The notes beneath the pieces are model-generated. The model did no database searches. It saw nothing but the letters and a program-made list of their open reading frames with translations, and was not told the DNA's origin. From an uncultured bacterium (GTDB taxonomy: Bacteria > Verrucomicrobiota > Verrucomicrobiia > Limisphaerales > UBA8199), in the NCBI GenBank assembly GCA_963749495.1, contig CAVVMW010000001.1, forward strand, positions 704,001 to 768,000: a stretch of DNA of 64,000 nt, given 5' to 3'. Both the position numbers and the translations under genes were made by a program. Positions 3,429 through 42,633 of this stretch are shown here, in pieces (the first letter of the stretch is position 1; every line of letters starts with the position of its first letter).

Positions 3429-3713
3429 CCGGGCCTAATCGTTATGTGCGACTGCGACCGCGCGCTCGGCCAGGACCAGCGCCCCGGTCGGCACGGCATC
3501 CTCGCCCAGGCCGGCCAGGGCCACGCGCGGGCCGGGGGCAAAGACCTCCATGATGAAGGCAGGGAGCGCGTCCTGGACCGCCGCCCGCAAGGGCTCGCCG
3601 AGCCCGGACAAACCGCCGCCCAGCACGATGATTTGAGGATGGAACAAATGGACCACGTGCGAAAGGGCGAAGGCCAGGTCCTGGGCGGTCTCGAGCAGGA
3701 TTCGCCGGGCGGC
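3429..3713 (-). repeat. 285-bp direct repeat duplicating the 3' end of the ROK gene (5266-5550)
   Basis: Matches 5266-5550 at offset 1837, with the same translation (AARRILLETAQ...AHND*). It has no 5' part. Confidence 0.92.
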
Positions 3714-3728
3714 TGAGAAAGCCATTAT

Positions 3729-3854
3729 CACGTCTCAACATTTGACATTTGGCAATACATTTCGCGATGGACAGCGGGCGCTGGCCCCGGAGAATGGAGG
3801 CTCGATCACGGAAGGACGTCTGTGGCTGAGGGAAATGTCAAATGTTGAGATGTG
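3729..3854. mobile_element. MITE-like element with 22-bp inverted ends
   Basis: CACGTCTCAACATTTGACATTT (3729-3750) versus AAATGTCAAATGTTGAGATGTG (3833-3854), one mismatch. Confidence 0.65.
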
Positions 3855-3866
3855 CCCCCGATGTTC

Positions 3867-4898
3867 CTATGGTCTGTTCGCAGGGGCGGAGATCCCGATC
3901 TTCGGCGCAGAACCACCCGATGATAAAGCCCTGTCGAGCAGTGTTTTGACACCGGCACCCAATAAAAGCAGCAAGATTCCCCAAAAAGCGTAGGTTGCCA
4001 AGGAAAAGCGACCGAACTTCGTTGCCATGCTGGTTATTTCGGTTTCCTGTCGGGACGTGGTTGTCTTGAGGTTGCCTACTTCGCCTGGCAGCAGCCGAAT
4101 GCCAGTGATTATTTCATGGATCTGCTTGGTATTTTCTGTGGTGATAGACTCCAACTTGTTCGCCTGCGTAGCGAGTCCCTTCAGTTCGTGAGCAAGCAGC
4201 GCCACATCAGCACTCACCTTATCTACGTTCTTGGTAAGCGTCTTAATCGGCTCAAGGACATCATTGTACTGAGACTTCAGATTAAGGACATCCTGCGTCA
4301 GTCGCTGTATCTGTTTGACTTCTTCGCTGATTCTGGCCCAAGGAAGCACTTCCATGTTGGCCATTTTGTTAACAAAATCACTCGGAAAACTGCCAATCAG
4401 CAGAGCGGGATCAGGGGCGACTGGTTTTTGCTCTTTCTCCAGAAGAACAAACACGATGTTGCAGATCTTTGTCCGCGTTGGTATGACGACCCTTTTAGTG
4501 GATGCATTGTACAGCCCGAAAAGGAGATGCCCCTCATATCCTGGATCAATAACCGATCCCGTGAGCAAGATCAGTCCCTCGTACGAGAATTTGCGCTTCG
4601 AGCCGATTTGCGCCAACACATTGTTCGGAAGTTTTATCTTTTCCAGCGATATGATGCCCGCGTAGGAACCTGGGTCAATTACCAGGCTTTCACTGGTCAG
4701 GTCCATCTCTTTTCCTTGTCCGCCGATTATCGCCTTCTTGCCAACCCTTATATCATACGAGGTCGTTTGAAGGCTGCTGGCATCGAACGTGGAATCCACG
4801 ATCAGCCTTCCGGTCTGCACCATTTGCAGAATACTATCCTCTGCCAAAATGGCGGAATATTTCGGCGGCTCCGCAAAAAGTGTGGCTTCTTTCGGCAT
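3867..4898 (-). CDS. dCTP deaminase/dUTPase-fold domain fused to coiled coil and C-terminal transmembrane helix
   Basis: SYDIR and GSVIDPGYEGHL motifs. Heptad-rich middle region, then hydrophobic YAFWGILLLLLGAGV. Visibly more AT-rich than the flanks. Confidence 0.75.
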   Translation of the reverse strand: MPKEATLFAEPPKYSAILAEDSILQMVQTGRLIVDSTFDASSLQTTSYDIRVGKKAIIGGQGKEMDLTSESLVIDPGSYAGIISLEKIKLPNNVLAQIGSKRKFSYEGLILLTGSVIDPGYEGHLLFGLYNASTKRVVIPTRTKICNIVFVLLEKEQKPVAPDPALLIGSFPSDFVNKMANMEVLPWARISEEVKQIQRLTQDVLNLKSQYNDVLEPIKTLTKNVDKVSADVALLAHELKGLATQANKLESITTENTKQIHEIITGIRLLPGEVGNLKTTTSRQETEITSMATKFGRFSLATYAFWGILLLLLGAGVKTLLDRALSSGGSAPKIGISAPANRP

Positions 4899-5180
4899 CC
4901 GCTTTCACCATGCACAAAACCCGCGAACTTGGCAAGCCCTGAACTTGGCCGAGCATTTCGGACTCCCAAGCTCCGCTTTGGCACTCGGGGGGCCAGAAAG
5001 GGGCCCATGAGAATGTACTATTCTGATCAACGTGCTAATATGACAATCTCATTAACCGACCCCGTTCCGACCTTAACCGACCCCGTTCCGACCCCGTTCC
5101 GTGGCCGGTCCAGCCACTCGGGGCCATTTGTTCAAACGCTAGATACTCCAGCAGCCCCGCGGTTTTGAACATTTCTTCTT

Positions 5181-5250
5181 TGAATTTTGAATTTGTTTCG
5201 GGTTTCGTGCTTCGGATTTCGGATTTCAGGTTTCGGATTTCGGATTTTTC
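5181..5250. repeat. TTCGGAT-type heptamer tandem repeat
   Basis: Related blocks occur at 9373-9425 (inverted) and 20905-20970. Confidence 0.8.
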
Positions 5251-5271
5251 GAATGCCCCTGCAAACCGGGC

Positions 5272-6204
5272 CTAATCGTTATGTGCGACTGCGACCGCGC
5301 GCTCGGCCAGGACCAGCGCCCCGGTCGGCACGGCATCCTCGCCCAGGCCGGCCAGGGCCACGCGCGGGCCGGGGGCAAAGACCTCCATGATGAAGGCAGG
5401 GAGCGCGTCCTGGACCGCCGCCCGCAAGGGCTCGCCGAGCCCGGACAAACCGCCGCCCAGCACGATGATTTGAGGATGGAACAAATGGACCACGTGCGAA
5501 AGGGCGAAGGCCAGGTCCTGGGCGGTCTCGAGCAGGATTCGCCGGGCGGCCGGGTCGGCCTGCGCCAGCGCGGCGCCCAGGTGCCGGGCCTCGCCGCCCT
5601 GGGTGGTCCCCGCCAACCGCGCCAACAAGCCCTCCGGCGCCTGCGCATTCATCCGGCGGATGCGCGCATCCACAGCCCACCCGGAGCAGCGCGCCTCGAC
5701 AATCGTCCCCTGCCGGTCCAGGCGGACATGGCCGATCTCGGCCTCGCCGGGCGCCGCCCCGTGATAGATCCGCTCATCCACTACCAGGCCTCCGCCGACG
5801 CCGCTGCCCAGGGTCACATAGAAGACGGGGTTGAAACCGGCGCCGGTCCCGCGCCGGGCCTCGCCCAAAGCGCCGACGTTCGCGTCGTTGTCCACGGCCA
5901 CGGATACCCCGGAGAGCCCGCGCAGCCAGCCGGCCAGGTCGAACTCCGACCACCCCTCGACCTGGTGCGAGCGGCAGATCTTGCCCGTGCGCCAATCCAC
6001 CGGCCCGCCAAAACCGACGCCGATGGCCTGGACCTGGCGCCCGGACATCAACTCCGGCACGGTCCGCCGAATCTGTTCGCGGATGGCCTGCGCGCCGGAA
6101 GCGGAGCGGACGTCCAGCCTCCGCCGCTCGCGGATCGTGCCGGTCTGGTCGCCGAGAACGATCTGCAGCTTGGTGCCGCCGATTTCGATGCCGATGCGGG
6201 ACAT
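5272..6204 (-). CDS. ROK family sugar kinase
   Basis: IGIEIGGTK, GVGFGGP, DNDANVGALGE, TLGSGVGGG, GEAEIGH motifs. Confidence 0.9.
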   Translation of the reverse strand: MSRIGIEIGGTKLQIVLGDQTGTIRERRRLDVRSASGAQAIREQIRRTVPELMSGRQVQAIGVGFGGPVDWRTGKICRSHQVEGWSEFDLAGWLRGLSGVSVAVDNDANVGALGEARRGTGAGFNPVFYVTLGSGVGGGLVVDERIYHGAAPGEAEIGHVRLDRQGTIVEARCSGWAVDARIRRMNAQAPEGLLARLAGTTQGGEARHLGAALAQADPAARRILLETAQDLAFALSHVVHLFHPQIIVLGGGLSGLGEPLRAAVQDALPAFIMEVFAPGPRVALAGLGEDAVPTGALVLAERAVAVAHND

Positions 6205-6214
6205 GGAGGCAGGT

Positions 6215-6792
6215 TCAGCCGAAGTAGTCCGGTTCATTGCCCGGTTTCCACTTGATATTGCAGCCCATGCTGGGCCGCTGGCGGGGCGGGACCGGCTTGC
6301 CGCCGAGCACCGCCTCTAGGGCGGCGCGCACGTCGTTGCCGGTGACGGGGATGCCGTTGCCGGGCCGGCTTCGTCCATCTGGCCGCGATAGACCAGGCGC
6401 TGAGCGGCATCGAACAAAAAGAAATCCGGGGTGCAGGCGGCGTGATAGGCACGGGCCACCCGCTGGGTCTCATCGTAGAGATAGGGGAAAAGGTAGCCCG
6501 CCGCCTTGGCCTCCGCCGCCATCATGGCCGGGCTGTCGGCGGGGTAATTCTCCACGTCATTCGAGTTGATGCCGGCGATGCGCACCCCTCGGGACAGGTA
6601 ATCGCGCGCCAGTTGGGCCAGGCCGGCGCGGATGTGCTTCACGTAGGGGCAATGATTGCACATGAAGACTATCAGCAGCGCCGGGGCGCCCCGGAGTTGT
6701 GCGAGCGAAACCAGCTCGCCGTTCGTGTCGGGCAGGCGAAAGTCCGGCGCCGGCATGCCCAAGGGCAGCATCGTGGATTGTGTGGCGGCCAT
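6215..6792 (-). CDS. Thioredoxin-family (AhpC/TSA-like) protein; 1-nt frameshift near 6371
   Basis: FMCNHCPYV and AACTPDFFLFD. A shifted frame gives the conserved end SRPGNGIPVTG...SMGCNIKWKPGNEPDYFG*. Confidence 0.85.
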
Positions 6793-10937: not shown

Positions 10938-11089
10938 TAAATAATTTGCCCCGGTCGTGTGTAAGCACGCCGGGGCGCAAAGACCTAGCTGACCGAAGCC
11001 GAGTTCTCCAACCGCGTGTCCAAAACGCGGAATGAATGCTGCGGGCCGGGTCCAAACCGACCGAGCAGGCAGTTAGGCACTAGTTTGGT

Positions 11090-11163
11090 GGGCGCGTAGT
11101 TTAACCGGACAAAACACCGGCGTTTACACCCGAGAGATGCGGGTCCGATCCCCGTCGCGTCCA
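11090..11163 (+). tRNA. Degenerate tRNA-Val(TAC)-like sequence
   Basis: Acceptor stem GGGCGCG/CGCGTCC-A, D stem GTTT/AAAC with GG in the loop, TTTACAC loop, T arm GCGGG-TCCGATC-CCCGT. The anticodon stem pairs poorly and the 3' end is TCA, not CCA. Confidence 0.65.
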
Positions 11164-11167
11164 TCAT

Positions 11168-21957: not shown

Positions 21958-23129
21958 TCAGTGAAAGCAAATCTTGCTCACGCAGTCCTGGAAGTCGTTG
22001 GCCCCGCTCAGGATCTTGATTTCGACGCGCATGAAATAGATGGGCAAATCGCGGCGGTCAATCCTGGGAAAGCGGACGGCGTCCTTCTGGGTGGTAACGA
22101 TGGTCTGGGCCTGGCGTTTCTTGCTGCGGTTGATGGCATTGAGGATCTCCTGCTGGGAAAAGCGGTGATGGTCGGCAAAGCGTTTGGAATAGACCAGTTC
22201 GGCGCCCAGTTCGACCAGGCTCTGCTCGAAGCTCTCCGGCTGGGCGATGCCGCTGAGCGCGGCCACTTTGCAGCCGCGCAGCAGGTCCAGGTCCGTCCGC
22301 TGGCCGGTGAAGACGTCCTCGAGGTAGAGGGGGTGATGGATGCACTCGATGATGCCGGCGTCGGGATTGAGCCGGGCGATGCGCCGGCGCAACGCGGCGG
22401 TTTTGCCGTCGCTCTTGGTGATGAAGATGGTGCTGGCGCGGGCCAGGTGCGAGGGGGCTCGCGCAGGGTGCCGCGCGGCAGCAGCCGCTCGTTGCCGAAG
22501 GGCTGCTGGCGGTCGATCAGGACGATGTCCAGCCGGCGGCCCCGGAGCTTCCAATACTGGAAGCCGTCGTCCAGCAGCAGCGTGTCGCAGCCGAATTTCT
22601 CGATGGCGTAGCGCCCGCTCTTGACGCGGTCCTTGTCCACCAGCACGACCACGTCCTTGAGATTGGAGGCCAGCATGTAGGGCTCGTTGCCCGCCATCTC
22701 CGAGTCCAGCAGGAGCGAACGCCCGTCCGAGACCACCCGCGGCGGCGTGGTGTCGTCCTGGAGGAAGATCTTGTTGAGCAGCCAGCGGTGCAGGGGCCTG
22801 GGCTTGGAACGGTAGCCGCGCGAGAGGATGGCCACGTTCCGGCCCTGGTCGCGCAATTCGCGCGCGAATTTCTCCACCACAGGCGTCTTGCCGGTGCCTC
22901 CCACCGTGAGATTGCCGATGGCGATCACCTGCACGCCCAGGGTCGAATCCCGCAGCAGACGCAGGTTGTAGAGCCCCCGCCGCCAGAGTATCGCCACGTG
23001 GAAGGCCTTCGAGCACAAGTACGCCACGGAGCGCACCAGCGCGGGGACCGTCCCGCGCCGCTCGCCCAGAATGACCTCCAACAGGAAGGTCTCCAGATTC
23101 TCCGTCCAGGCCCGAAACCTCTCGCTCAT
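21958..23129 (-). CDS. lpxK: Tetraacyldisaccharide 4'-kinase; frameshift near 22455
   Basis: [47 protein letters not shown]. Confidence 0.93.
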
Positions 23130-23254
23130 GTCCGGCGAGTCTGCCAAGCCCTGCGCCGGGAAGCAAGCCGGTGCCGGGCGCCTCCCGGCACCTTGCGGGC
23201 TTCGCGTCAATTTGGGTTGACCCCGGGCGGCGGCGTTTGCAGAGTGACCTCACC

Positions 23255-24244
23255 ATGCTGCGACCTAGCTTCATCGGGATGGCCGGCCTTTCCGTAGCCG
23301 GATTGTTCACTGCACTTGCCGCCGACAACGCCGCGGCCCCTGCCTCAGGCCAGGGCGTCCAACTCACCGAACTGGCCGACCGTGTCCGGGTCGAGATCGA
23401 TGGCCGGCTCTTTACCCAGTACCTCTTTGGCAAGACCGTGGCGCGCCCGTACTGCTACCCGCTCATCGGGCCGGGCGAGGCCCGGATGACGCGGGACTGG
23501 CCGATGAAAAACAGCCCAAACGAGGCCCATGACCATCCGCACCACCGCTCGTTCTGGTTCGCACATGGGTCGATGAACGGACTGGATTTCTGGTCCGAAG
23601 AAAAGAATTTTGGCAGGACGGTCCATGACGGCTTCATCGAGATCAAGTCCGGGAGCGAATCGGGCGTCATCAAGTCGCGCAACAATTGGGTGGCGGCCGA
23701 CGGGACGGTCGTGTGCCGGGATGAGCGCGCATTGCGCATCTACAACCCGGGGGACCGTCCCGAGCGGATAGTGGACTTCGAGATCACGCTCTTTGCCTCC
23801 AACGGCCCGCTGACCCTGGGGGACACCAAGGAGGGGACGATGGCCTTGCGGCTGGCGGAGACCATGAGGCTCACCGGGCCGGTGGGCCACGGCCATATTG
23901 TCAACAGCCAGGGCGTCCGCGACAGCGCCACCTGGGGCAAACGCGCCGACTGGTGCGATTATTATGGACCGGTCAACGGCAAAACGGTCGGGGTGGCCAT
24001 CTTCGACCATCCGCAGAATCCCCGGCATCCCACGTGGTGGCATGTTCGCGATTACGGGTTGTTCGCCGCCAATCCCTTCGGCCAGCATGACTTCGAAGAG
24101 CTGCTCGATAAGAAGGCCGGCGACCTCGTTGTTCCTGCCGGCCAAAGCGTGACCTTCCGCTACCGTTTCTACCTGCACGAGGGCGATGAAAAACACGCCA
24201 GAGTGGCTGAAAAGTACCGTGAATACACAAACCCCCATCCCTAG
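23255..24244 (+). CDS. Secreted DUF6807/'PmoA'-labelled family protein
   Basis: Signal peptide, DHPHHRSFWFAHG, DHPQNPRHPTWWHVRDYGLFAANP. Confidence 0.75.
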   Translation: MLRPSFIGMAGLSVAGLFTALAADNAAAPASGQGVQLTELADRVRVEIDGRLFTQYLFGKTVARPYCYPLIGPGEARMTRDWPMKNSPNEAHDHPHHRSFWFAHGSMNGLDFWSEEKNFGRTVHDGFIEIKSGSESGVIKSRNNWVAADGTVVCRDERALRIYNPGDRPERIVDFEITLFASNGPLTLGDTKEGTMALRLAETMRLTGPVGHGHIVNSQGVRDSATWGKRADWCDYYGPVNGKTVGVAIFDHPQNPRHPTWWHVRDYGLFAANPFGQHDFEELLDKKAGDLVVPAGQSVTFRYRFYLHEGDEKHARVAEKYREYTNPHP

Positions 24245-29896: not shown

Positions 29897-31726
29897 GTGA
29901 AGCTTTTCGAGCGGATTTCCCCATCTATTACGCGCGGCACACGGCGCCGGCCGTTTGTCTCGCTGTGTAGCCTTCTGGCCGTGTGCCTGCTCGGCTCCAA
30001 GCCGCGCTGGCCGGGGCGGCGGACCCCCTGGAAGCGATCCGGCAGCGGGGGGCATTGCTCTGGGGCGCGGATGCGGAGGGGGGCGCCCCTTATGTGTATC
30101 CGGACCCGCAGAGGCCGGAGCAACTGATCGGCTTCGAGTATGAACTTGCCGAGGCCCTGGCCGCCAGGCTCGGGGTCAGGGCCAGGATGGTCCAGAACCA
30201 ATGGGACCAGCTCATCCCCGCGCTCGAACGAGGCAACTTCGACATCCTCCTCAACGGCCTGGAACTGACGCCGCAGAACCAGCAGCGCATCGCGATGTCG
30301 CAGCCTTATTACGTCTATGCCCAGCAGATCGTCACGCGCCCGCCAGGCCCAGGGCCTGACACGGATCGAATCGCTCCAGGGCAAACGTGTGGGCGTGCTC
30401 TCGTCGTCCGCAGCACACCGTTTGCTGGAGGCGGACGGCCGGACCGATCTGGTTCTCTACCCGGGCAACGTCGAGAGTTTCCGCGACCTCAAGGCGGGGC
30501 GGATCGAGGCGGTGGTGCTGGACCTGCCGATCGCCTTGCACTATGCGGGGCCGGACCCGGCGTTGAAGTTTTCCGGGCCCCCATTCGCGCCCGGCTATTA
30601 CGGGATCGGCGTGCGCAAAGGGGATGACTCGCTGTTGGCGGCGGTGAACGGGGCGATCCGGCAGATGACCGCCGACGGGACACTCGAGCGCATCTACCGC
30701 AAGCACGGGATTTGGGACGAGCGCCAGGCACAGCTTGCGGATTACCGGCCTGCGGCGGTGGCGGAGCGGCAAGCCGTCTCGACCTTGCGCGAGTGGCCGA
30801 AGTACCTGCCGCTGCTCTTGCGCGGGGCGGTCACGACGGTGGAGTTGAGCGTGCTGGCGATGGCCCTGGCGGTGATGGCCGGGTTGGTGCTGGTGCTGGC
30901 GCGGCTGTTCGCGCCGGCGCCCCTGCCATGGCTGGCCAGGGCCTACATCGAGGTCATCCGGGGCACGCCGTTGCTCATCCAACTCTTTCTCATCTTCAAG
31001 TCCTATCAATCGGTCTGCGTGCTGCGGGGCATCAACCATGTGCAGGAGCGCGGCGAGGTGGTCGTGCTCATCGGCCCGAGCGGGTCCGGCAAGACCACGT
31101 TTCTGCGCTGCCTGAACCAGCTCGAGGCCGCCGATGCGGGGCGCATCACCATAGACGGCATCAGCGTCGCGGGGGGCCGCCCGGCGCGGACGGGCAGGGA
31201 CCTCGAGCGGCAGCGCCAGTTGCGGCTGCGGGCGGGGATGGTGTTTCAGTCCTTCAACCTCTTTCCGCACCTGACGGTCCTGGAGAACATCACGTCGGCG
31301 CCGGTGGTCGTGAAGGGGATGGCGCGGCAGGAGGCCCAGGCGCGCGCGCGCCAACTGCTGGACAAGGTGGGCCTGGCCGACAAGGCCGGGGCCTATCCCA
31401 GCCAGCTCTCCGGCGGACAACAGCAGCGGGTGGCCATCGCCCGGGCCCTGGCGATGGGGCCGCAGGTCATGCTCTTCGACGAGCCGACCAGCGCCCTGGA
31501 CCCCGAACTGCGCGGCGAGGTCCTGGGGGTCATGCGCCAACTCGCCCAGGAGGGCATGACCATGATCGTGGTCACTCACGAGATGCAGTTCGCCCGCGAC
31601 ATCGCCGACCGCGTCCTGTTCTTCGAGGGCGGCCTGGTGGCCGAGTCCGGCCCGCCCGATGAAATCTTCTCCCACCCGCGCCACGAACGCACGCGGGAGT
31701 TTCTGCGGCGCGTGGAGACAAGGTGA
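29897..31726 (+). CDS. Polar amino-acid ABC transporter: binding protein-permease fused by apparent deletion to ATPase; frameshifts near 29995 and 30340
   Basis: SBP motifs ([14 protein letters not shown]), permease start ([15 protein letters not shown]), then directly the ATPase ([26 protein letters not shown]). Confidence 0.85.
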
Positions 31727-33334: not shown

Positions 33335-33530
33335 GCGTTGCGGAGCGACGCTGTGAGGGTAGCCGTGGACCTCGGTCCACGGTTCGGCGCGTGGCAATAG
33401 CGGTGCGTCGCGTAGCGACGCTTGGAAGCGGCGCGGTTTTCAAGCGTCGCTACGCGACGCAGGTGGTTTGTGGGCGCGTATCCCGTGGACTGAAGTCCAC
33501 GGCTACCGTCGCGCACCGCTACGCGGTGAA
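33335..33530. repeat. REPIN-like family F (CGTCGCGTAGCGACG / CCGTGGAC..GTCCACGG)
   Basis: A closely related copy lies at 50200-50395. Confidence 0.88.
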
Positions 33531-33538
33531 CCGGCCCG

Positions 33539-33674
33539 TTCACCGTTTGGCCGAGTTGAGTGCTTTCTTGAGGGCGGCGATGGCGTTGACCTCGACTCTG
33601 TCGCTCTTGGAGCGGAGGCTGATGCGAGTCAGGTCGGGCGCGACTTTCTCGAAGACACAGACGACGACCGCCGG
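33539..33674 (-). pseudogene. Degenerate nrnA 3'-end fragment (copy 3)
   Basis: PAVVVCVFEKVAPDLTRISLRSKSDRVEVNAIAA|LKKALNSAKR*. Carries an 87-bp deletion between GGGCGGCGATG direct repeats. Confidence 0.88.
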
Positions 33675-33776
33675 TACTGGTTGCGGTTTGGGCGATTTTG
33701 GTGTCTAATGATGGTGGCTGCCCCGCCTGATATTTGGAACGCAGCGTTTCGGGGCTGAAGGCTGGGAGCCTCGTTC

Positions 33777-34346
33777 ATGGGCGAGTCGGCGGAACAAGTG
33801 ACCCGGATCCTCGATGCGGTTGGGGCCGGGGATGCGCAAGCGGCTGAGAAGCTGCTGCCGTTGGTTTATGAGGAACTGCGCCGGTTGGCCGCGGCCAAAA
33901 TGGCAAGCGAAGCGCCCGGCCAGACCCTTCAACCCACCGCGCTGGTTCACGAGGCCTGGCTGCGGCTGGCCGGCTCGCACCGTCAACGATGGCGTGGGCG
34001 GGATCATTTCTTCAGTGCCGCCGCTGAGGCGATGCGGCGAATCCTCGTGGAGAATGCGCGGCGCAAACAGCGGATCCGTCACGGAGGCGGGATGCAACGG
34101 GTGGACATCGCCTCCATCGACCTGCCCATCGCCGCGCAAGACGAGAAATGCCTTCAGATCGATGAATACCTCGACCAATTGGCGGAAGAAGATCCTGAAA
34201 AGGCGGAAGTGGTGAAACTCCGTGTGTTCACTGGGCTGAAAGTCTCGGAAATCGCCTCGATCCTGGATTGCTCGGAAAAGACGGTGCAGCGTCATTGGAA
34301 CTTCGCGAGGGCCTGGTTGTCTCGGTCGCTGAGGTCTGGGCAATAA
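33777..34346 (+). CDS. ECF sigma factor, TIGR02999 type
   Basis: LLPLVYEELRRLA, TLQPTALVHEAWLRL, AAAEAMRRILVE, RHWNFARAWL. Confidence 0.93.
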   Translation: MGESAEQVTRILDAVGAGDAQAAEKLLPLVYEELRRLAAAKMASEAPGQTLQPTALVHEAWLRLAGSHRQRWRGRDHFFSAAAEAMRRILVENARRKQRIRHGGGMQRVDIASIDLPIAAQDEKCLQIDEYLDQLAEEDPEKAEVVKLRVFTGLKVSEIASILDCSEKTVQRHWNFARAWLSRSLRSGQ

Positions 34347-34422
34347 AAAAGTTCCGGATTCGTGTCCGATTCCACCCCGAAACGTCGCCATAGTAGATAG
34401 ACGTGAAGACAGCATTGACGCG

Positions 34423-37400
34423 ATGAACCAGCGCAAGAAGAAACTCGAAGACATCTTTGAGGCCGCGCTGGCCTTGGAGTCTGACGCCGAGCGCGAGGAT
34501 TACTTGGGCCGAGCCTGCCCCGACATGGAATTAAGGAGGGAAGTGGAATCGCTGCTGGAGGCGCATCGGCACCCAGACAGTCTCTTTGTAGAGGAAGCGA
34601 CGGATTCGGAAGGCACGTTGTGCTGCCAGCCGTTGCAGGAAAGTGTCGGCACGGTGATCGGCCGCTACAAACTCCTCGAAAAGATCGGGGAAGGCGGGTT
34701 TGGGGTCGTCTATGTGGCCGAGCAGCGGGAGCCGGTCAAGCGGCGCGTGGCCCTCAAGATCATCAAGCTGGGGATGGATACCCGGCAGGTCGTGGCCCGG
34801 TTCGAGGCGGAACGCCAGGCGCTGGCGCTAATGGATCATCCCAACATCGCCAAGGTGCTGGATGCGGGGGCGACGGAGACCGGCCGGCCGTTCTTTGTGA
34901 TGGAGTTGGTGAAAGGGATTACGCTTACCAAGTACTGCGACCAGGAGAAGCTGGCCACGCGGGCGCGGCTGGATTTGTTCATCAAAGTCTGTCACGCGAT
35001 TCAGCATGCGCACCAGAAGGGGATCATCCATCGGGACATCAAGCCCTCGAACATCCTGGTGACGCTGCACGACGGCGTGCCGGTGCCCAAGGTGATAGAC
35101 TTCGGGATTGCCAAGGCGACGCAGGCCGAGTTGACCGAGAAGACGGTCTATACGCAGTTCCAGCAGTTCATCGGGACGCCGGCCTACATCGAGCCCGGAA
35201 CAGGCGGAGATGAGCGGTCTGGACATTGACACTCGCAGTGACATCTACAGCCTCGGTGTTCTGCTATATGAACTGCTCACGGGGAATACGCCCTTTGACA
35301 CCAAGGAGTTGTTGCAGTCCGGGCTAGATGAGATGCGGAAGATCATCCGGGAACGTCAGCCGGTGCGGCCGAGCACGCGGCTGCGTCAAACCGCTGTGAC
35401 CGCGTCGCCGTCTCCACTCGCCCCTCGCCCCTCGCCCCTCGCCACCGACCTTGACTGGATCGTGATGAAGTGCCTGGAGAAGGACCGGGCGCGGCGTTAC
35501 GAGACCGCCAACGGGGTGGCCTTGGACATCGAGCGGCATTTGAAGCACGAGCCGGTGGTGGCGCGGCCGCCGAGCGTTGGGTATCGGCTGCAAAAGAGTT
35601 TTCGGAGGAACAAGCTGGTGTTCACCGCGGCTGGAGGGGTTGGGGCGGCGTTGGTGCTGGGGGTAGTGGTCAGCTCCTGGCAGGCCGTCCGCGCCACCAC
35701 GGCGGAAAAGATGGCACGTGAGAAAGCAAACATCGCTCAAGCGCAGCGCCTGCGGGCGGATGAAGCGGCGCGGGTGGCCGAGAGCCAACGGGCGCGCGCG
35801 GAGAAAGGGGAGCAGAAAGCCAGGGAGAGCGAGCTGGCGGCGCGCGAGAACCTCTACGACGCCGACATGATCCTCGCCGGCGAGGCCCTCCAGCACAGCA
35901 ACCTCGGTCGCGCGCTCAAATTCCTGAACCTGCAACGACCCGCCAAAGCCGGCCAGGGCGATCTGCGCGGATGGGAATGGCGTTACCTCTGGGCACAGTG
36001 CCGCAGCGACGAGTTAGCCACGCTTGGCGAGCATGAGGGCATCGTCCAATCCGTAGCCGTCTCTCCTGATGGCAAGTGGGTGGCCTCGGGGGGCTGGGAT
36101 GGCCTACTTCAGATTTGGGCCCTGGCTTCTGGAGCGGGGACAGGACGATGGGTGACCAATGCGCAGTTGGGGGGAGGACCGGTTTCCAGCGTGGCCTTCT
36201 CTCCGGACGGGCGCTGGCTGGCAGCCCTCACATGGACCAATGGTTTCGCCCTCTTCAATGCGCCAGGATGGGACCGGGCAATGACGGTGTGGAATGCAGA
36301 GGAGAAGGGATCGCTGGCTTTCTCCGCCGATAGCCGCCTTCTGGCCGTTGGGGGCGAGATTTGGAGCCTGGATACTCGCAACCGTTTGTGCGCTTTGCCA
36401 TGTCGGCGGGCGTTCGGCTGGGGACAACATACAGTAGCTTGGTTGCCCTCTTCGCAGATTCTCGCTGGGTACGTTATGTCCAACGACGTGGCGCAGGTTT
36501 GGTTGTTCGACGTTCGCTCTACCAACCCCACTGCCATGGTATCAGCGATCCCCTTGCGAGCGGACAAGGGGAAATGGTTGTTGCCGGTAACCCTGGCTTT
36601 CTCACCCGATGGAAAGCATCTGACTGTTGGCTGCTATGATGGCACCATCCGCATCCATGCCGCCAACGACTGGCACCAGTTCAAGATCCTGACCAACCAC
36701 ACGGGCTGGGTCAGCTCCCTGGCTTTTTCCAAGGATGGGCAATGGCTGGCCAGTGGCGGCGCTGACCACAGCATCAGAGTCTGGCGCACGCGCGACTGGG
36801 AGGAGACGGCCACGTTGCGCGGCCATCAAGAAGAGGTGTGGGCGGTAGCTTTTACCCCGGACGGCCAACAACTGGTCAGCGGGTCAAAAGACCACACCGT
36901 GCGGCTCTGGCCGCTCGCCGCCCGGTCAAAGCCCGTCGAGGAAGTGACCGTGTCAGCCGAGGGCGCGGAATTCCTCGGCCTATCCGGAATGTCTCCGTTC
37001 AGGGTTGGCGCTTCGAACGTTCTCACCGTCTGGGATGGGCAGACGCTCCAGGTCCGCCAGCGCCTGGCCAGTTATCCGGTCCCGAATGTCACCGGCTGGA
37101 GACCTTCGCCGGACGGCCGCACGCTTCTGATGGTGACGGCAGAAGGCGGGTTATGGCTGACGGACCTTGCGGCAGGGGCAGTTTCGCCGCCGGTCTGTCT
37201 GCAGACCACCGGGTCATGGTTTCGGGAGGCCGCCTTCGCGCGCTGGGGGGAAACCGCCTTCTCGGACCAGGCGAAGTGGGTGGCAGTCGCCGACGGCGAG
37301 GCGCTCCGGGTATGGGACTTGAAGGACCAGCCGTCGCGGCCGGGCTTCTTGCTTGCCGCGGGGAACTTCTGGGGGTTGCGTTTCTCCCGGGACGAACGCC

Positions 37401-37930
37401 TCCTCGGTGCACTCACCGGCCCCATCCGGACCGGGCGGACAATCCTGGTCTGGGACGTGGCTTCGGGAAAGGAGTTGGCGCGCTTTCAACCGCATCGTGA
37501 CGAAGTAGAGGACCTCGATTTCTCTCCCGACGGCACTGTGTTGGCCACGGCCAGTCTCGACAATACGAGCAAGTTGTTCGATCTGCGTACGGGCCATGAG
37601 ATCACGACATTGCCTGGCCAACTGATGTCGCTTTACTCGGTGTGCTTCTCGCCCGATGGCCGCCGCTTGGCCACAGGCACGGGCCCTGGCTACGACGGCA
37701 TCGCCGAAATGCTCATTTGGGACCTGGAAACCCGTCGCGAAGTCCTGGTCCTAAAAGCACGCGATCCAGGTTCTATAGAGCGGTGCTACCCGAGAGTGCG
37801 GTTCCACCCGGGCGGAGACTCGCTGTTCTTCATCAGCAGTCGGGGCACCTTGCACCTCTGGCGCGCGCCGTCGTGGGCGGAGATTGAGGCGGCAGAGAAA
37901 AGGACTGACGGCAAAGCGCCGCAACGCTGA
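34423..37930 (+). CDS. Ser/Thr protein kinase with TM helix and WD40 repeats; frameshift near 35190
   Basis: IGEGGFG, VALK, HRDIKPSN, DFG, GTPAY(M)SPEQ, SDIYSLG, and many GH...FSPDG...WD repeats. Confidence 0.93.
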
Positions 37931-38017
37931 CCAGTTGATCCAAACCCTTTGCCTCCCAAAGGCGCATGGATGATCGAATGAACCACTATTTTGGCTATGA
38001 AACCTGCTGACGACTGA

Positions 38018-38090
38018 GCCAAGGTGCTGGATGCGGCGGCCACCGAGACGGGCAAGACGCTCTTCGGCACGGAATTGGTCCGCCGCATCG
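38018..38090 (+). pseudogene. Short Ser/Thr kinase remnant
   Basis: AKVLDAAATETGKTLFGTELVRRI versus AKVLDAGATETGRPFFVMELVKGI in the upstream kinase. Confidence 0.7.
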
Positions 38091-38259
38091 AGCCAGGTCG
38101 CCTTAGACAACTACCTATGAAAAAAAGGGAGAATCACTCCCTGACGTGTGAGGGGTTGCTTGACGCCGACAGATTTCGCCACCCAAGAACGGTGGCGGAA
38201 GTAGAAAACAACAACCAAACCCAGGTGCCCGTCACCTGGAAACGAAAGGAAGACAGAAA

Positions 38260-39312
38260 ATGAAAACCACCGCATCCAACCATTCAACGAGCGGCGGCCT
38301 GACAGGCTGGCCGCTCGGCCTGAGCACTTGCTTGGGCCTTGCGCTTGCCGCAACGCTCTGCACCACAAGCCTGCCCGTCCAGGCCAAATTGCCGGACGTG
38401 ACCGGCGATTACAGGATTCAAACCCTTGAGTCGCCTCCAGGCACGGATATCAATGAAATCTATTGTGTCTTGATCAATGAAGCCGGCATGGTGGTCATGC
38501 AATACAATTCGGTGATGGTGATTGGATCGGGAACAATTAACGAAGGGCAAACGGCAGTCCGGGAAAAAGGGGTGTGGACGGTGATTAATGTTCCCGGCTC
38601 CGCCTGGACGGGATGCGGTAACCCCAATGCCTCTGGAGATGTCGATCTGGCCTACGCCGATACGGCTGGCAACTGGCACAACGCCATATGGCATCATGGA
38701 ACTTACAAATATCTTCCAGATTACACGGCGCCCGTTGGCCAGCCACCCTACCAGTATGGGGTTCAATGCATAAATGACCATTGCATCATGACCGGGATGG
38801 CCTTTGATCCAACGAGCACGTGCTGGGATCCCGTATTTGATTGGTACTGCGTGCACGGTGTTTTGCTGAACACGTCCTTGTCGCTGTTCGAATTCTTCGA
38901 TTATCCCGGTGCCTACTCTACCTATCCGCTTGGCATCAATGATGCTTGTCAGTTCGTAGGCGCGTATTCATCGTCCGAGGACAATGGGTGCCATTGTTTC
39001 TTCAGCGACCGGGGCAAGACCTTTGTGAATATTGACCCACCCGGCTCCTCGAATCCCCCCAATACCCAAACTAGGGTTCCTTTTATGATCAACAACCAGG
39101 GCGAGATCTGTGGCTGGTACACGGACGCGTCCACGGGCGTCCAGCAGGGCTTCCTGCTGCGTCAGAGGAAGTTTTTCGCCTTCAACGTTCCCAAGTCGAG
39201 TTCGACGTACCTCAATTGCATCACGGACGATGGCCAATTGTCGGGTGTGTACCTTGATCTGGAGGGAACGCCGCATGGCTTCATCGCCACGCCCAAGGGT
39301 GGTTGCAAGTGA
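38260..39312 (+). CDS. Secreted protein with HAF-like extracellular repeats
   Basis: Signal peptide; repeated (G/M/C)IN(D/N)-G-x-x-G-Y and HGF motifs (DYPGAYSTYPLGIND). More AT-rich than the flanks. Confidence 0.7.
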   Translation: MKTTASNHSTSGGLTGWPLGLSTCLGLALAATLCTTSLPVQAKLPDVTGDYRIQTLESPPGTDINEIYCVLINEAGMVVMQYNSVMVIGSGTINEGQTAVREKGVWTVINVPGSAWTGCGNPNASGDVDLAYADTAGNWHNAIWHHGTYKYLPDYTAPVGQPPYQYGVQCINDHCIMTGMAFDPTSTCWDPVFDWYCVHGVLLNTSLSLFEFFDYPGAYSTYPLGINDACQFVGAYSSSEDNGCHCFFSDRGKTFVNIDPPGSSNPPNTQTRVPFMINNQGEICGWYTDASTGVQQGFLLRQRKFFAFNVPKSSSTYLNCITDDGQLSGVYLDLEGTPHGFIATPKGGCK

Positions 39313-39674
39313 GGTTTGAGGGAACTGAGGAGTGTGTCTGATTCAGACACGACACATTCCCCACGGTTAGGCCATCTCAGGATACGATCGTTATGAAATT
39401 CTCAGCAACTCAACCTCAATAACCGGAGGCCGTCATCAACCCAACTCCTCATAGCTAAAGCGAAAACATAGGGGTAATGACAAGCGTTTCAGCGTTGGGT
39501 TCAACGGGCAGGCAACCCGAATGCCGAAGGGACGGCTGAAGCCAGGGGCCCCTTCGGGACTTATTCCTTCTGCGGGCCAAAACCCAACGCTAAAGCGCTT
39601 GTCGTTACCCACATCGTCGGGTGCCCTCATGAAGCGGATCTGATGGCCGTCACGGATTTCCGAAGCACATTTCT

Positions 39675-39897
39675 CATCCCGGAGGGATGCCAGAAGGTAG
39701 CCGGGGGTCGAAGCGTAGCGAGACCCCCGGTGCCGCGACGGCAAGGGAGTGCATCCCGGAGGGATGCCAGAAGGCGCCCGCCGCGAACGTCTGCCTCTTC
39801 TGGCACCCCCGCCGGGGTGCTGGGCCACCGACGCCCTCAACCGGGGGTCGCCGCTGGACGGCGACCCCCGGCTACCTTCTGCCAACCCTCCGGGTTG
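39675..39897. repeat. REPIN family B copy
   Basis: Same organisation as 6922-7148. Confidence 0.88.
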
Positions 39898-40138
39898 GCC
39901 GGGCGTTGCCGCCGGCTGCTATCAAGGGCGCCTTTAGCGGCTAGAACTGGCATGCTCCTCAGGCCTTTCTCCCGCCTGCCCAAAAAGGGGAACTGATATG
40001 ACCGCTCAGGAGATGTGGCTAAAGACAAGCGCTAAAGCGTTGGGCTATTGTCGGATGTCCCTTCGGGACAAAACCTGTGCCGAGGGCCGGCGCCCCTTGT
40101 GCATCTGGCGGTTCGGATGGAACTTGACGTTGGCGAAT

Positions 40139-40361
40139 TCACCCCTTGGCCGAGTTGAGGGCTTTCTTGAGGGCGGCGATGACTTTGCGCTGGGCGGAGA
40201 GGGGTTTGCCGGGGATGCGGGCGCCTGCGGCGGCGACGTGGCCGCCGCCGCCGAACTGGGCGGCGATGGCGTTGACATCGACCTTTTCGCTCTTGGAGCG
40301 GAGGCTGATGCGAGTCAGGTTGGGCCCGACTTCTTCGAAGACCCAGCCGACGACGACCGGG
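40139..40361 (-). pseudogene. nrnA 3'-end fragment (copy 2)
   Basis: Colinear with 41647-41869 (offset 1508) with scattered substitutions: PVVVGWVFEE...KKALNSAKG*. Confidence 0.92.
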
Positions 40362-40480
40362 AAATCGTCCTCTTGGGGGAGGCCCTCAAACGAACCGAGG
40401 GCCTGCAGCGCGAGGCCTTTCTCAATCGAGCCTGTGCGGGAGACCAGGCGGTTCGGGCTAGGCTCGAACGTCATCGCGCA
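40362..40480 (+). pseudogene. Remnant of an ECF-associated Ser/Thr kinase N-terminus
   Basis: EIVLLGEALKRTEGLQREAFLNRACAGDQAVRARLE resembles DIFEAALALESDAEREDYLGRACPDMELRREVE at 34423. Confidence 0.6.
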
Positions 40481-40510
40481 GCCAGGCTGTGCGCCCTCAG
40501 AAGCAGGCGA

Positions 40511-40936
40511 TCATCTTAAGCGGAGCAGTCGAGAAACGAATGCGTCCGGACGCAGAATCTCGATGCCGAATGGCTTTTCCAGATCGAGCAGGTCCCGATC
40601 GTATGTCACAAGGCACACCGCCCGGCCACCCAGGGCCGCAGCCAGGACGACATCGTCATCCGGATCCCGTTTGACGGTCGCGCGCAGGGCGCCCGGCGCA
40701 ACGAGTGACGACTTCTGCCGCAGCCAGTCGAGCCAGTGCGCCCAATTGGGGTTCTGCCAGCGCGGTTCGCGGGCAGCCAGGTCCGCCAACGTGCCGGCCC
40801 ATTCAGCCGTCAGATCCGGTGTGCGGACCGATTGGAATGCCCTTCGAGCCAATAGGACGAAGAGGCGTCGCGCCGCGCCGCCGGACCAGCCGATGCCGGC
40901 GGCGACCACCGACGTGTCAAGCGCGGCGACGATCAA
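40511..40936 (-). CDS. PIN-domain putative toxin
   Basis: ALDTSVV, RDPDDDVVLAAA, LVTYDRDLL. Confidence 0.85.
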   Translation of the reverse strand: MIVAALDTSVVAAGIGWSGGAARRLFVLLARRAFQSVRTPDLTAEWAGTLADLAAREPRWQNPNWAHWLDWLRQKSSLVAPGALRATVKRDPDDDVVLAAALGGRAVCLVTYDRDLLDLEKPFGIEILRPDAFVSRLLRLR

Positions 40937-41186
40937 GACGGTGCCTCCGTTTGATGCGTCGCGCCGCCTCGACCACTACGTCCAGCGGCTCTGCGCCAGC
41001 AGCGCCCGGGCTCCGATCCACCAGGTCGGCAAACTCCCGGCGCAAACGTTCCTGTTCGGCCTCTTGTGCCTGGCGAATCAAGTCCTGGAGGACGTCGCTG
41101 GTGGAGGTATAGCCCCCGGTATCGCGCCGATTCTCCAGCCAGGCGCGTTGCACCGGGGGCAGCGAAATGCTCACCGTCTTACCCAT
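40917..41186 (-). CDS. ParD/CC2985-like RHH antitoxin
   Basis: TVSISLP...GGYTSTSDVLQDLIR; overlaps the PIN gene start. Confidence 0.75.
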   Translation of the reverse strand: MGKTVSISLPPVQRAWLENRRDTGGYTSTSDVLQDLIRQAQEAEQERLRREFADLVDRSPGAAGAEPLDVVVEAARRIKRRHRLDRRRA

Positions 41187-41390
41187 GTCAACATGTTGCC
41201 TGCCAGGGAAAAGTTGTCAAGTTCTGTCAACCGGCGTTCATGGGAACACGCGGAACAAAGCTCGTCCATACTTTTTTCTCCCGGAATGCGCACGTATGAA
41301 TGAAGGCAGCAACACTTTTGCCTCTGTAGTCCAAATCGAGGACAATTGAAAAGGCTTGAAACCGGGCGCCGCCGGTAGGAAAGTTGCACT

Positions 41391-41666
41391 ATGAGTGCAC
41401 CGATTGTGCGGGAAAAGCGGCAAACCACGCTCCCTCAAGATGTCTGCGAGGCCGCCGGCCTGAAGCCAAACGATCAAGTCAATTGGCGCTTCGAGGAGGG
41501 CGAGATCCGTGGACGCAAGCTGGTGGCCCGAAAGCCCAAGCCGCGATTTCCCCGGGGGAGCCTCCTCAAGTACTTCACCCCCGAAAAAACGCGTGAGGAA
41601 GCTGCAATCTATGAGGCCACCGTCAAAGGAGGAGGAGGAAGAACACTCACGGCTTGGTGGAATTGA
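41391..41666 (+). CDS. AbrB/MazE/SpoVT-like DNA-binding protein (orphan)
   Basis: KRQTTLPQDVCEAAGLKPNDQVNW. Confidence 0.65.
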   Translation: MSAPIVREKRQTTLPQDVCEAAGLKPNDQVNWRFEEGEIRGRKLVARKPKPRFPRGSLLKYFTPEKTREEAAIYEATVKGGGGRTLTAWWN

Positions 41667-42633
41667 GCGCCTTCTTGATCGCGGCGATGACTTTGCGCTG
41701 GGCGGAGAGGGGTTTGCCGGGGATGCGGGCGCCTGCGGCGGCGACGTGGCCGCCGCCGCCGAACTGGGCGGCGATGGCGTTGACATTGACCTTGTCGCTC
41801 TTGGAGCGGAGGCTGATGCGAGTCAGGTCGGGTTCGACTTCTTCGAAGACACAGGCGACGACCACCGGGGCGATGGCGCGGATGTGGTCGATGAGGCCCT
41901 CGGAGTCGCTGCTGTCGGCGCCGGTGCGGGCGAAGTCGGCCTTTTTGAGCCAGAAATAGGCGATCTGGTTCTGGTGGGTGAGGCGGTAGTGGCTATAGAC
42001 GTGCTTAAGGAGTTTGGCGCGGGAGATGGGGTAGGATTGATAGACCTCATCGCAGATCTTGGCGAGGTCGGCGCCGCGCCGGACCAGTTCCCCGGCCACA
42101 TGGAAGGTGCCGGGGCGGGTGCTGGGATATTGGAAGGAGCCGGTGTCGGTGGAGACGGCTGCGAAGAGGCAGTCGGCGATGGGCTTGGTGATGGGCCACT
42201 TGGCGAGCTTGAGGAGGCGGAAGACGAGTTCGCCGGTGGAGGGTTCGCGCCCGGAGACCCAATTGAGGTCGCCGAACCGGGTATTGCTCTGGTGGTGGTC
42301 GATGTTGATGAGGAGCTTGCGCTGAGCGATGCAGGGGCCGACCGAGCCGAGGCGCTCGAGGCTGGCGGCATCGGTGGCGATGACGCAATCGAACTGCTGT
42401 CCCGGCTTGGGTTTTTGCAAGAGATGGGCGGGGTCGAGGAACTCGTATTTTTGGGGGATGGGGTCCTCATTCCAACAACAGACCTGTTTGCCTTCGTTTT
42501 GGAGGGCGATGGCCAGGCCGAGTTGAGCGCCGACGCAATCGCCGTCGGGCCGGATGTGGCCGACGACACAAACGGTCTGGCTCTGGCGGAGGCCCTCGAT
42601 GATGCGGTCGAGGATCTTGGGATGGGGCTTCAA
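41647..42633 (-). CDS. nrnA: DHH/DHHA1 oligoribonuclease / PAP phosphatase
   Basis: HIRPDGDC, NIDHH, STDTGSF, SLRS, GGGGHVAAAGA. Confidence 0.92.
   Translation of the reverse strand: MKPHPKILDRIIEGLRQSQTVCVVGHIRPDGDCVGAQLGLAIALQNEGKQVCCWNEDPIPQKYEFLDPAHLLQKPKPGQQFDCVIATDAASLERLGSVGPCIAQRKLLINIDHHQSNTRFGDLNWVSGREPSTGELVFRLLKLAKWPITKPIADCLFAAVSTDTGSFQYPSTRPGTFHVAGELVRRGADLAKICDEVYQSYPISRAKLLKHVYSHYRLTHQNQIAYFWLKKADFARTGADSSDSEGLIDHIRAIAPVVVACVFEEVEPDLTRISLRSKSDKVNVNAIAAQFGGGGHVAAAGARIPGKPLSAQRKVIAAIKKALNSTKP

Follow-up and report, generated by a model that had tools for sequence, protein, structure and literature searches.

Insertion with long target duplication, which came to light in Helicobacter pylori (Nobusato et al., 2000, reference 37 in Furuta, Abe and Kobayashi, 2010, Nucleic Acids Res 38:2428; PMC2853133), is described in the latter paper as a mode of gene acquisition in which the inserts carry no mobility genes and are flanked by long direct repeats of variable length. 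According to that source, it has been found for all types of restriction-modification system and is told apart from site-specific integration by two features, a missing integrase and repeats of more than 30 bp; the repeats support amplification, and the mechanism was left open, with double-strand breaks suggested (PMC2853133). Here we describe an array at the 3' end of nrnA, the gene of a DHH/DHHA1 phosphoesterase, in a 64,000-nt stretch of the genome of an uncultured verrucomicrobium (positions 704,001 to 768,000 of contig CAVVMW010000001.1, hereafter the window, to which coordinates refer unless a contig or locus is named). The end of nrnA occurs three times in this window, with cargo genes between the copies. 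With a probability that we put at about 0.6, the array is the old and decayed product of recombinase-independent DNA capture, belonging to the class of insertion with long target duplication, in which homology-anchored capture was closed at a microhomology and followed by conversion and deletions.

The array and its sister loci in the same genome resemble the published long target duplications: the inserts are shorter than 20 kb, the direct repeats of the target are long and variable in length and can overlap the 3' end of a gene, there is no integrase or transposase, and two of the loci, on contigs C16 and C10, have methyltransferase cargo. They are unlike the published cases, which are defined by restriction-modification cargo and mostly have repeats of tens of bp, in naturally competent proteobacteria, in that the repeats measure 136-586 nt, the cargo at nrnA consists of a toxin-antitoxin pair and a sigma factor-kinase module, the nrnA repeat is present in three copies, and the host is an uncultured verrucomicrobium. 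No syntenic empty site was found for the nrnA locus, and its cargo is not a restriction-modification system, a feature that the published screen used in its definition; a ROK-family locus in the same window does have an empty site. Insertion with long target duplication is the class into which the nrnA array and its sister loci fall, except that most of the cargo is not of the restriction-modification kind.

Integrative elements and cis-mobilizable elements (CIMEs) can accrete in tandem at a gene's 3' end (Pavlovic, 2004; Bellanger, 2011; both via PMC5704250), an arrangement that is alike in that cassettes without an integrase stand behind a gene that stays intact. CIMEs, however, retain short att sites that share an identical core, and the site is also used by related elements that do carry an integrase (PMC5704250); at nrnA no cognate integrase was found, the breakpoint in a congeneric genome (G003) differs, and one junction lies at a microhomology. 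CIME accretion fits the topology, and fails on the integrase and the conserved crossover site and probably also on the foreign gene end. Prophage e14 and phage 21 in icd of Escherichia coli duplicate the 3' end of the gene while leaving it intact and displacing a pseudo-end; in that case the end attached to the gene comes from the phage and has an integrase beside it, unlike nrnA, where the gene-attached end looks native and no integrase is present. Homology-facilitated illegitimate recombination in natural transformation, reportedly set out by de Vries and Wackernagel in 2002, is said to be anchored by homology on one side and joined on the other at a few GC-rich bases of microhomology, with capture of foreign DNA and, mainly, with loss of recipient DNA at the joint. 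The nrnA type of joint differs in lying upstream of the end of the anchor, so that 136-586 nt are duplicated. A literature search on this process found no bacterial paper.

Genome comparisons have revealed long target duplications since 2000, mostly in connection with restriction-modification genes of a small number of competent bacteria. The present genome would add, within one verrucomicrobium, a graded series of about ten gene-end events of different ages, with cargo ranging from methylases and a dCTP-deaminase-like gene to toxin-antitoxin and sigma factor-kinase modules, and one junction still shows the microhomology apparently used. Such a series allows testing of how bacteria add defence and signalling genes without the machinery of mobile elements, and an orphan gene end beside an island is no proof of an integrase.

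Three ends of nrnA and their junctions

The source genome (G000) is an 11.4-Mb metagenome-assembled genome in 31 contigs, 88% complete and with 5.8% contamination, and the window lies on its contig C1. Matches below the curated cut-offs of Pfam and NCBIfam are called weak. The intact nrnA (41647-42633, minus strand) matches Pfam DHH (3.6e-15) and DHHA1 (6.9e-11); its protein matches the NCBIfam NrnA model at an E value of 7e-36, under the equivalog cut-off. The gene-attached end, c1 (41647-41869, minus strand), comprises the 223 nt from Pro255 to the stop codon. A first orphan end, c2 (40139-40361, minus strand, also 223 nt; DHHA1, 1.5e-8), is 92% identical to c1 and lies within a 111-aa open reading frame (ORF; 40139-40474), and a second, c3 (33539-33674, minus strand), carries an in-frame deletion of 87 nt. 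When c1 was compared with the whole 11.4-Mb genome, three of the 40 matches listed were strong (E values of 1e-112, 2e-89 and 9e-34) and the other 37 had E values of at least 0.001, which bears out the triplication noticed in an earlier inspection of the letters alone (the sequence-only reading). All three copies begin, within 1 nt, at the CCGG of the Pro255 codon, the proline at which that reading had placed a shared breakpoint, and beyond the TGA stop codon similarity among them drops to none.

Against c1, c3 aligns as two blocks (33572-33674 and 33539-33588), and the 87-nt gap, corresponding to 29 codons, is bounded by two 10-nt direct repeats, GGCGGCGATG (repeat family D5). The 17 differences between c1 and c2 amount to six synonymous and nine non-synonymous codon changes, and all of them lie in nt 6-82 and 189-218 of the repeat, leaving no difference in a block of 106 nt (nt 83-188) against 17 in the 117 nt outside it. 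We read this identity block as a likely trace of gene conversion between copies 1.5 kb apart. Because the 135 columns common to the three copies hold nearly equal numbers of pairwise differences (15 between c1 and c2, 17 between c1 and c3, 15 between c2 and c3), there is no distance-graded decay at the level of substitutions, and this part of the sequence-only reading has to be given up; the higher overall identity of c2 to c1 is due to the 106-nt block.

The two orphans agree with each other against c1 at five positions in the last 32 nt and at only two in the first 103 nt, and the alignable orthologues mostly match c1 where c2 and c3 disagree with it. The mosaic suggests, without proving it, that both orphans may descend from a common ancestor. 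Both are nearest to c1 (c2 at 92%, c3 at 87%), and every orthologue is less close. Because c1 is 89.5% identical to its orthologue in the related genome G002 and the first 762 nt of nrnA are 87.4% identical, with no break in identity between them, c1 does not look imported, though it may still have come from an element of a close relative.

Two units of cargo lie between the copies: unit A (40362-41646, 1.3 kb) between c1 and c2, and unit B (33675-40138, 6.5 kb) between c2 and c3. The cassettes that had been recognized there from the letters are present, namely a PIN/ParD-like toxin-antitoxin pair and a series of extracytoplasmic function (ECF) sigma factor gene, kinase gene and 350-aa ORF; both units are shorter than 20 kb, and the searches turned up no recombinase or transposase inside either.

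The breakpoint of c2 abuts the 5' remnant of a kinase gene (40362-40470, plus strand, approximately codons 5-42), and kinase paralogues on contigs C4 and C5 match it at their starts with 71-76% identity. In the alignment at this junction the paralogues read ATG AAA CCT GCT GAC GAC CGG GAA, and a 10-nt microhomology, GACGACCGGG, matches the kinase at 10 of 10 positions and nrnA at 9 of 10. The c2 joint is therefore illegitimate, and the crossover could lie anywhere within about 10 nt. Unit B has a kinase remnant of its own (37939-38083, plus strand; repeats D6/D7), which consists of a short conserved element (U, described below) and codons 1-6, followed by a jump to approximately residues 142-163, and both remnants in the window break at the same GACGAC, at codons 5-6. 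At the c3 junction, CCGG is followed by six bases and then by the upstream unit of the ECF sigma factor gene, and the upstream regions of three ECF paralogues start to align about 6 nt from the c3 breakpoint, at TTGCG. The partners at the two junctions thus differ, one being the coding start of a kinase and the other an ECF upstream unit, and the element-side flanks have no sequence in common.

Relatives of the locus and other genes with the same geometry

In G000, nrnA is the last gene of a nusA-infB-rbfA-nrnA block on the minus strand, with rbfA, infB and nusA upstream. When the NrnA protein was compared with 41 genomes, extra partial matches were found only in G000 and in G003, which belongs to the same genus. 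The C-terminal 94 residues were matched in 41 of 45 genomes of the family, once in 39 of them, three times in G000 and twice in G003, and not in the remaining four. Downstream of nrnA in G003 come a 416-aa ORF without a known family and, after it, an orphan that is 93% identical to the genome's own nrnA end. Because the species-specific C-terminus NCGTKK is present on both copies, the G003 orphan was copied from the gene of its own genome. It begins near codon 235, about 66 nt (approximately 20 codons) upstream of the G000 breakpoint, and the nrnA of G003 has a frame shift 12-20 nt inside the inner boundary of the repeat. Judged from its breakpoint and cargo, both of which differ from those in G000, the G003 duplication is an independent event. 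Breakpoints thus vary among relatives, near codon 235 in G003 and at codon 255 in G000, which the sequence-only reading had named in advance as speaking against its own proposal.

The infB-rbfA-nrnA order is kept in all nine relatives whose flanks were fetched. The genes that follow nrnA in the window are absent from that place in all nine, and the genes found there instead map to scattered contigs of G000. Because the downstream genes differ in every one of these relatives, the end of the operon is a break in synteny throughout, and no empty site can be demonstrated. In the survey that the sequence-only reading had asked for, the genes downstream of nrnA vary among these relatives, and no fragment starting at the same codon appeared, the G003 orphan being the only one encountered.

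No recombinase lies in the window, as the sequence-only reading had noted, and this holds for the whole of contig C1, on which none of the 36 tyrosine-recombinase (PF00589) and none of the 10 serine-recombinase (PF00239) matches of the genome is located. Pfam scans of 81 ORFs of the window (in sets of 12, 10 and 59) returned housekeeping genes and no integrase or transposase. Our own hidden Markov models, applied to 90 sources (868 kb), gave no serine-recombinase match and two weak tyrosine-recombinase matches, under the Pfam cut-off and from one species. No recombinase match reached the Pfam cut-off in 89 loci of relatives searched over their whole length, 52 of which extend at least 1.5 kb downstream of nrnA. 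In the short contigs of public run X1, the sole run that holds parts of the stretch, no joints were seen, and the parts it leaves uncovered are uninformative.

When the genome was compared with itself, 115 pairs of low-copy direct repeats emerged, 100-1200 nt long and no more than 40 kb apart, from which 14 loci, together with one in the window, were chosen by eye and annotated with Pfam. In this selection, which is biased towards the geometry seen at nrnA, eight loci have an intact gene whose last 136-586 nt are repeated, at 90-100% identity, beyond 0.85-7.4 kb of cargo; a ninth is probable, one more is a mirror image described below, and the other five picked loci are paralogues or unclear. 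The most similar repeat, 285 nt at 100%, belongs to a ROK-family gene in the window (5272-6237, minus strand) with a dCTP-deaminase-like gene as cargo. An aspartate/ornithine carbamoyltransferase gene on C23 (202 nt, 99.5%) is followed by three ORFs, a GFO/IDH/MocA oxidoreductase gene on C16 (263 nt, 98.9%) by genes for a C5-methyltransferase and Vsr, a DUF5981 gene on C10 (313 nt, 98%) by a methyltransferase fragment, and a phosphoglycerate-mutase-like gene on C19 (586 nt, 97%) by epimerase, GT2 and TPR genes. The other clear cases are a short-chain dehydrogenase gene on C21 (136 nt, 95.6%; about 0.85 kb of cargo with an unknown ORF), a GH123 gene on C8 (153 nt, 92.8%; cargo that includes an ISAZ013 transposase) and a Pup-ligase-like gene on C22 (approximately 161 nt, 92%; cargo encoding an LRR protein), and the probable one is comEC on C6 (157 nt, 90%; cargo encoding an LRR protein and an Asp protease). 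At the eight clear loci the repeat ends between about 25 nt before and 13 nt after the stop codon of the intact gene, and across the approximately ten events of the genome the identity of the repeats runs from 100% down to about 88%. A mirror image was observed at an epimerase gene (C16:20835-22580; L138), where about 1.2 kb of cargo is preceded by a repeat of the gene's 5' end (239 nt, 93%).

By comparison of coordinates, no PF00589 or PF00239 match falls inside the cargo of these loci. An all-against-all BLASTP search of ORFs of at least 50 aa from ten cargo regions returned only frames antisense to nrnA and frames of repeat elements, with no gene in common, and the idea of a hidden recombinase shared by these cargo regions was rejected. 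No common motif was found at the inner repeat boundaries of ten loci. CCGG was considered as a cut site, since four of nine events have it within the first 9 nt of the inner boundary (post hoc P 0.0018); in 46 other low-copy repeat pairs it occurs at 1 of 92 boundaries, against a background of 6.7%, and the excess was taken as chance.

At the ROK locus, the two repeat copies (5266-5550 and 3429-3713) surround the dCTP-deaminase-like gene (3867-4898, minus strand, 343 aa). The ROK gene is separated from the next gene, which encodes a SIS domain, by 279 nt in the sister species G001 and 197 nt in G002, against 2213 nt in G000, of which 1837 nt are cargo plus one repeat. The locus is a clean insertion with a 285-nt target duplication, and its empty site is preserved in both sister species. 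The dCTP-deaminase-like gene has no other copy in the genome, and its protein bears a helix-rich C-terminal extension; PADLOC returned no match for it or for the toxin-antitoxin genes of the nrnA array. Its domain presumably recalls nucleotide-depleting defence enzymes. The ROK cargo is bordered on each side by short multicopy repeats (5007-5240 and 3733-3866).

Proposed capture without a recombinase and its rivals

Recombinase-independent capture would proceed in three steps. A break within nrnA near codon 255 would be followed by invasion of a homologous nrnA copy with different neighbours, either on incoming DNA or on another copy of the chromosome, by the gene-side end, which would copy the end of the gene and the neighbours behind it; a microhomology of a few bases would then serve to link the new DNA to the opposite side of the break. 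The product would be an intact nrnA, the cargo and an orphan running from codon 255 to the stop codon. One-ended invasion closed by microhomology joining would leave a seamless intact copy, an end of similarity at the stop codon and an orphan that starts at the break, and homology would run no further than the stop codon, since donor and recipient differ beyond it. The breakpoint common to the two orphans could go back to a single founding junction, multiplied later by unequal crossing-over between repeats, or to the use of the same short GC-rich microhomology twice. Subsequent events can be read from the sequence: gene conversion made 106 nt of c2 identical to c1, microhomology-mediated deletions took 87 nt from c3 and trimmed the kinase genes, and multicopy elements of the MITE (miniature inverted-repeat transposable element) and REP (repetitive extragenic palindromic) kinds inserted. 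The cargo would have been passive throughout, the toxin-antitoxin pair and the sigma factor-kinase module alike. DNA uptake by the host is a putative capability, and a ComEC gene is present in the genome.

Several findings weigh against this account. Two orphans with breakpoints that are equal within 1-10 nt are what a site-specific enzyme would be expected to leave, and both of the explanations just offered for them are unproven. Had c2 and c3 been copied from one unit, the DNA beyond their stop codons and most of their cargo should once have been alike; no similarity is left there, and the two units have in common only kinase remnants and the U element. The nine relatives offered neither an empty nor an intermediate state of the nrnA locus, and none of 80 metagenome loci encoding close relatives of NrnA had a second nrnA end; of these loci, 53 extend at least 1 kb downstream of nrnA, 27 at least 3 kb and 13 at least 8 kb. 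At the carbamoyltransferase and oxidoreductase loci, synteny-based empty sites were not found in G001, G002 or G003, in which the gene and the far flank lie on different contigs. The loci with the same geometry were picked by hand from the 115 pairs, so their count says nothing about frequency, and two attempts at an unbiased classification of these pairs by frame statistics (GC3, then GC1-GC2) failed, placing nrnA and the ROK gene on the wrong strand, and were dropped. Finally, an integrase-like ORF of 103 aa stands directly after the nrnA stop codon in the relative G013 (L044:12223-12534) and in the locus L092 (5717-6025), which are 99.8% identical; a stretch of 50 residues resembles the catalytic HxLRH region of tyrosine recombinases (PF00589 positions 89-139), at 18.7 bits against a cut-off of 27.1.

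The sequence-only reading had proposed repeated site-specific insertion, and its topology stands, since the cargo does lie between the intact end and the displaced ends. In its most developed form the proposal is a decayed array like those built by CIME accretion, in which two elements with substitute nrnA ends entered one att site and their integrases were lost or acted in trans. The identical start of both orphans and the end of homology at the stop codon are as expected, the three nrnA ends bound two units as a tandem array requires, the GC content of the cargo is lower than that of the flanks, and tandem accretion of integrase-less elements at a gene 3' end is documented (PMC5704250). The 36 tyrosine- and 10 serine-recombinase matches on other contigs could supply an enzyme, and the sub-threshold remnant in G013 and L092 adjoins nrnA itself. 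The mechanism nevertheless does not hold up well. The breakpoint in G003 is off by about 66 nt, c1 does not appear foreign, and the junction flanks share no sequence, one of them being a kinase coding region joined at a microhomology. No integrase lies on contig C1, no recombinase above the cut-off was found in the 89 loci of relatives, where the two weak matches come from one species, and no nrnA-end repeat was found downstream of the gene in G013. At least eight other genes with unrelated boundaries would need as many specificities. Repeated site-specific insertion at nrnA is thus unlikely.

Local segmental duplication, in which the interior of nrnA and its downstream neighbours were duplicated or triplicated in tandem and the copies then lost different parts, with no foreign DNA involved, would explain why the three copies are equidistant and why both units have kinase remnants and the U element near the orphans. 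A tandem-duplication junction of nrnA codons 255-258 with kinase codons 5-8 would give exactly the c2 joint, and cassettes of ECF sigma factor and kinase genes do form tandem arrays on C4 and C5. A tandem duplication would, however, also copy DNA beyond the stop codon, where similarity ends, and at c3 the joint is made with another partner, namely the ECF upstream unit. Paralogues on C4 and C5 resemble the kinase remnant of unit A more closely than the unit B kinase does, and neither the PIN/ParD-like pair, which has no second copy elsewhere in the genome, nor the ROK cargo, absent from the sister species and from the rest of the genome, can have arisen in this way with ease. We regard segmental duplication as improbable.

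A fixed site in nrnA might also have been cut repeatedly by a sequence- or structure-specific nuclease, each cut being healed by copying a homologous gene end and the DNA behind it. We hold this to be a quite doubtful variant; if true, a housekeeping gene would gather cassettes behind it in an integrase-free, site-directed way, and the other gene-end islets would have arisen by this route too. An assembly artefact, in which strain variants of the nrnA neighbourhood were chained in series, might be suspected from a 31-contig assembly of 88% completeness and 5.8% contamination with several frame-shifted genes in the window, and is very improbable, given that the divergence of 8-13% between the copies and the loss of 29 codons from c3 both go beyond strain-level variation, that G003, a separate assembly, has the same kind of structure, and that a 244-nt contig of run X1, which may be the source sample and which contains 9% of the sampled words in short contigs that bridge only this one junction, spans 33599-33842 across the c3 junction with no mismatches.

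Cargo genes and further observations

In unit A, an AbrB/MazE-like ORF (41391-41666, plus strand), convergent with nrnA, matches Pfam MazE_antitoxin weakly (E 4.8e-4) and has no NCBIfam match. Its last 20 nt overlap the nrnA end, so that the cargo boundary cuts its 3' end. The PIN-domain toxin gene (40511-40936, minus strand) matches Pfam PIN_3 (3.6e-12) and, at 29.0 bits against a cut-off of 29.15, TIGR00305. Overlapping it by 20 nt is a ParD/RHH-like antitoxin ORF (40917-41186, minus strand), which has no Pfam match and a weak match to NCBIfam TIGR02606 (E 7.5e-6, 25.9 bits). Two of the three gene assignments in unit A, ParD-like and AbrB/MazE-like, are thus under the curated cut-offs.

Unit B begins next to c3 with the ECF sigma factor gene (33777-34346, plus strand; Sigma70_ECF, 1.1e-61), followed by the gene of a Ser/Thr kinase with WD40 propellers (34423-37930, plus strand; Pkinase, 1.1e-32; WD40, 7e-64), which is read in two overlapping frames (34423-35229 and 35210-37930) and has many genomic paralogues at 70-83% identity. 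The 350-aa ORF (38260-39312, plus strand; GC 0.52-0.57) has no Pfam or NCBIfam match and a paralogue at C15:2323-3601, and its product is putatively secreted, as inferred from a hydrophobic N-terminus. Nearer to c2 lies a MITE-like element of about 430 nt (39598-40037; inverted repeats I1 and I3), which contains a palindrome of approximately 225 nt and has many genomic copies that are 87-96% identical, and just past the stop codon of c3 there is a REP-like palindromic multicopy element (33336-33529; inverted repeats I8 and I9), 76% identical to C5:85591-85380. In parts of both units the GC fraction is 0.52-0.58, against 0.64-0.70 around them.

The U element, a conserved stretch of about 70-80 nt, precedes the AbrB-like ORF in unit A (41256-41335, plus strand), where it is 90% identical to C5:85134-85055 and 77-84% identical to sequences at C5:89472 and C5:93819; on C5 it also precedes kinase paralogues and a paralogue of the secreted protein. 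Because units A and B both contain the U element and kinase remnants, both hold debris of the same expanded ECF-kinase family. The U element may be a promoter, predicted to be the target of the linked ECF sigma factors. Its places are 41256-41335 and 37939-38014 in the window and C5:85055-85134, 89408-89472 and 93777-93819. Cassettes of ECF sigma factor and Ser/Thr kinase genes, with truncated copies among them, are arranged in tandem at C4:684000-697600 and C5:85000-94500.

Single frame shifts split several genes, namely lpxK, an ABC transporter gene, the kinase gene, nrnA of G003 and comEC. The affected stretches are 21958-23433, 29983-31726 and 34423-37930 in the window, L039:8276-9266 and L140:5346-7935, and the shifts are either indel errors of long reads or marks of real pseudogenes. 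A tRNA gene lies at 11089-11165 on the plus strand (Rfam tRNA, 42 bits against a gathering score of 29); ARAGORN assigns it the anticodon TTA, which would decode the UAA stop codon, and its anticodon stem contains non-standard pairs.

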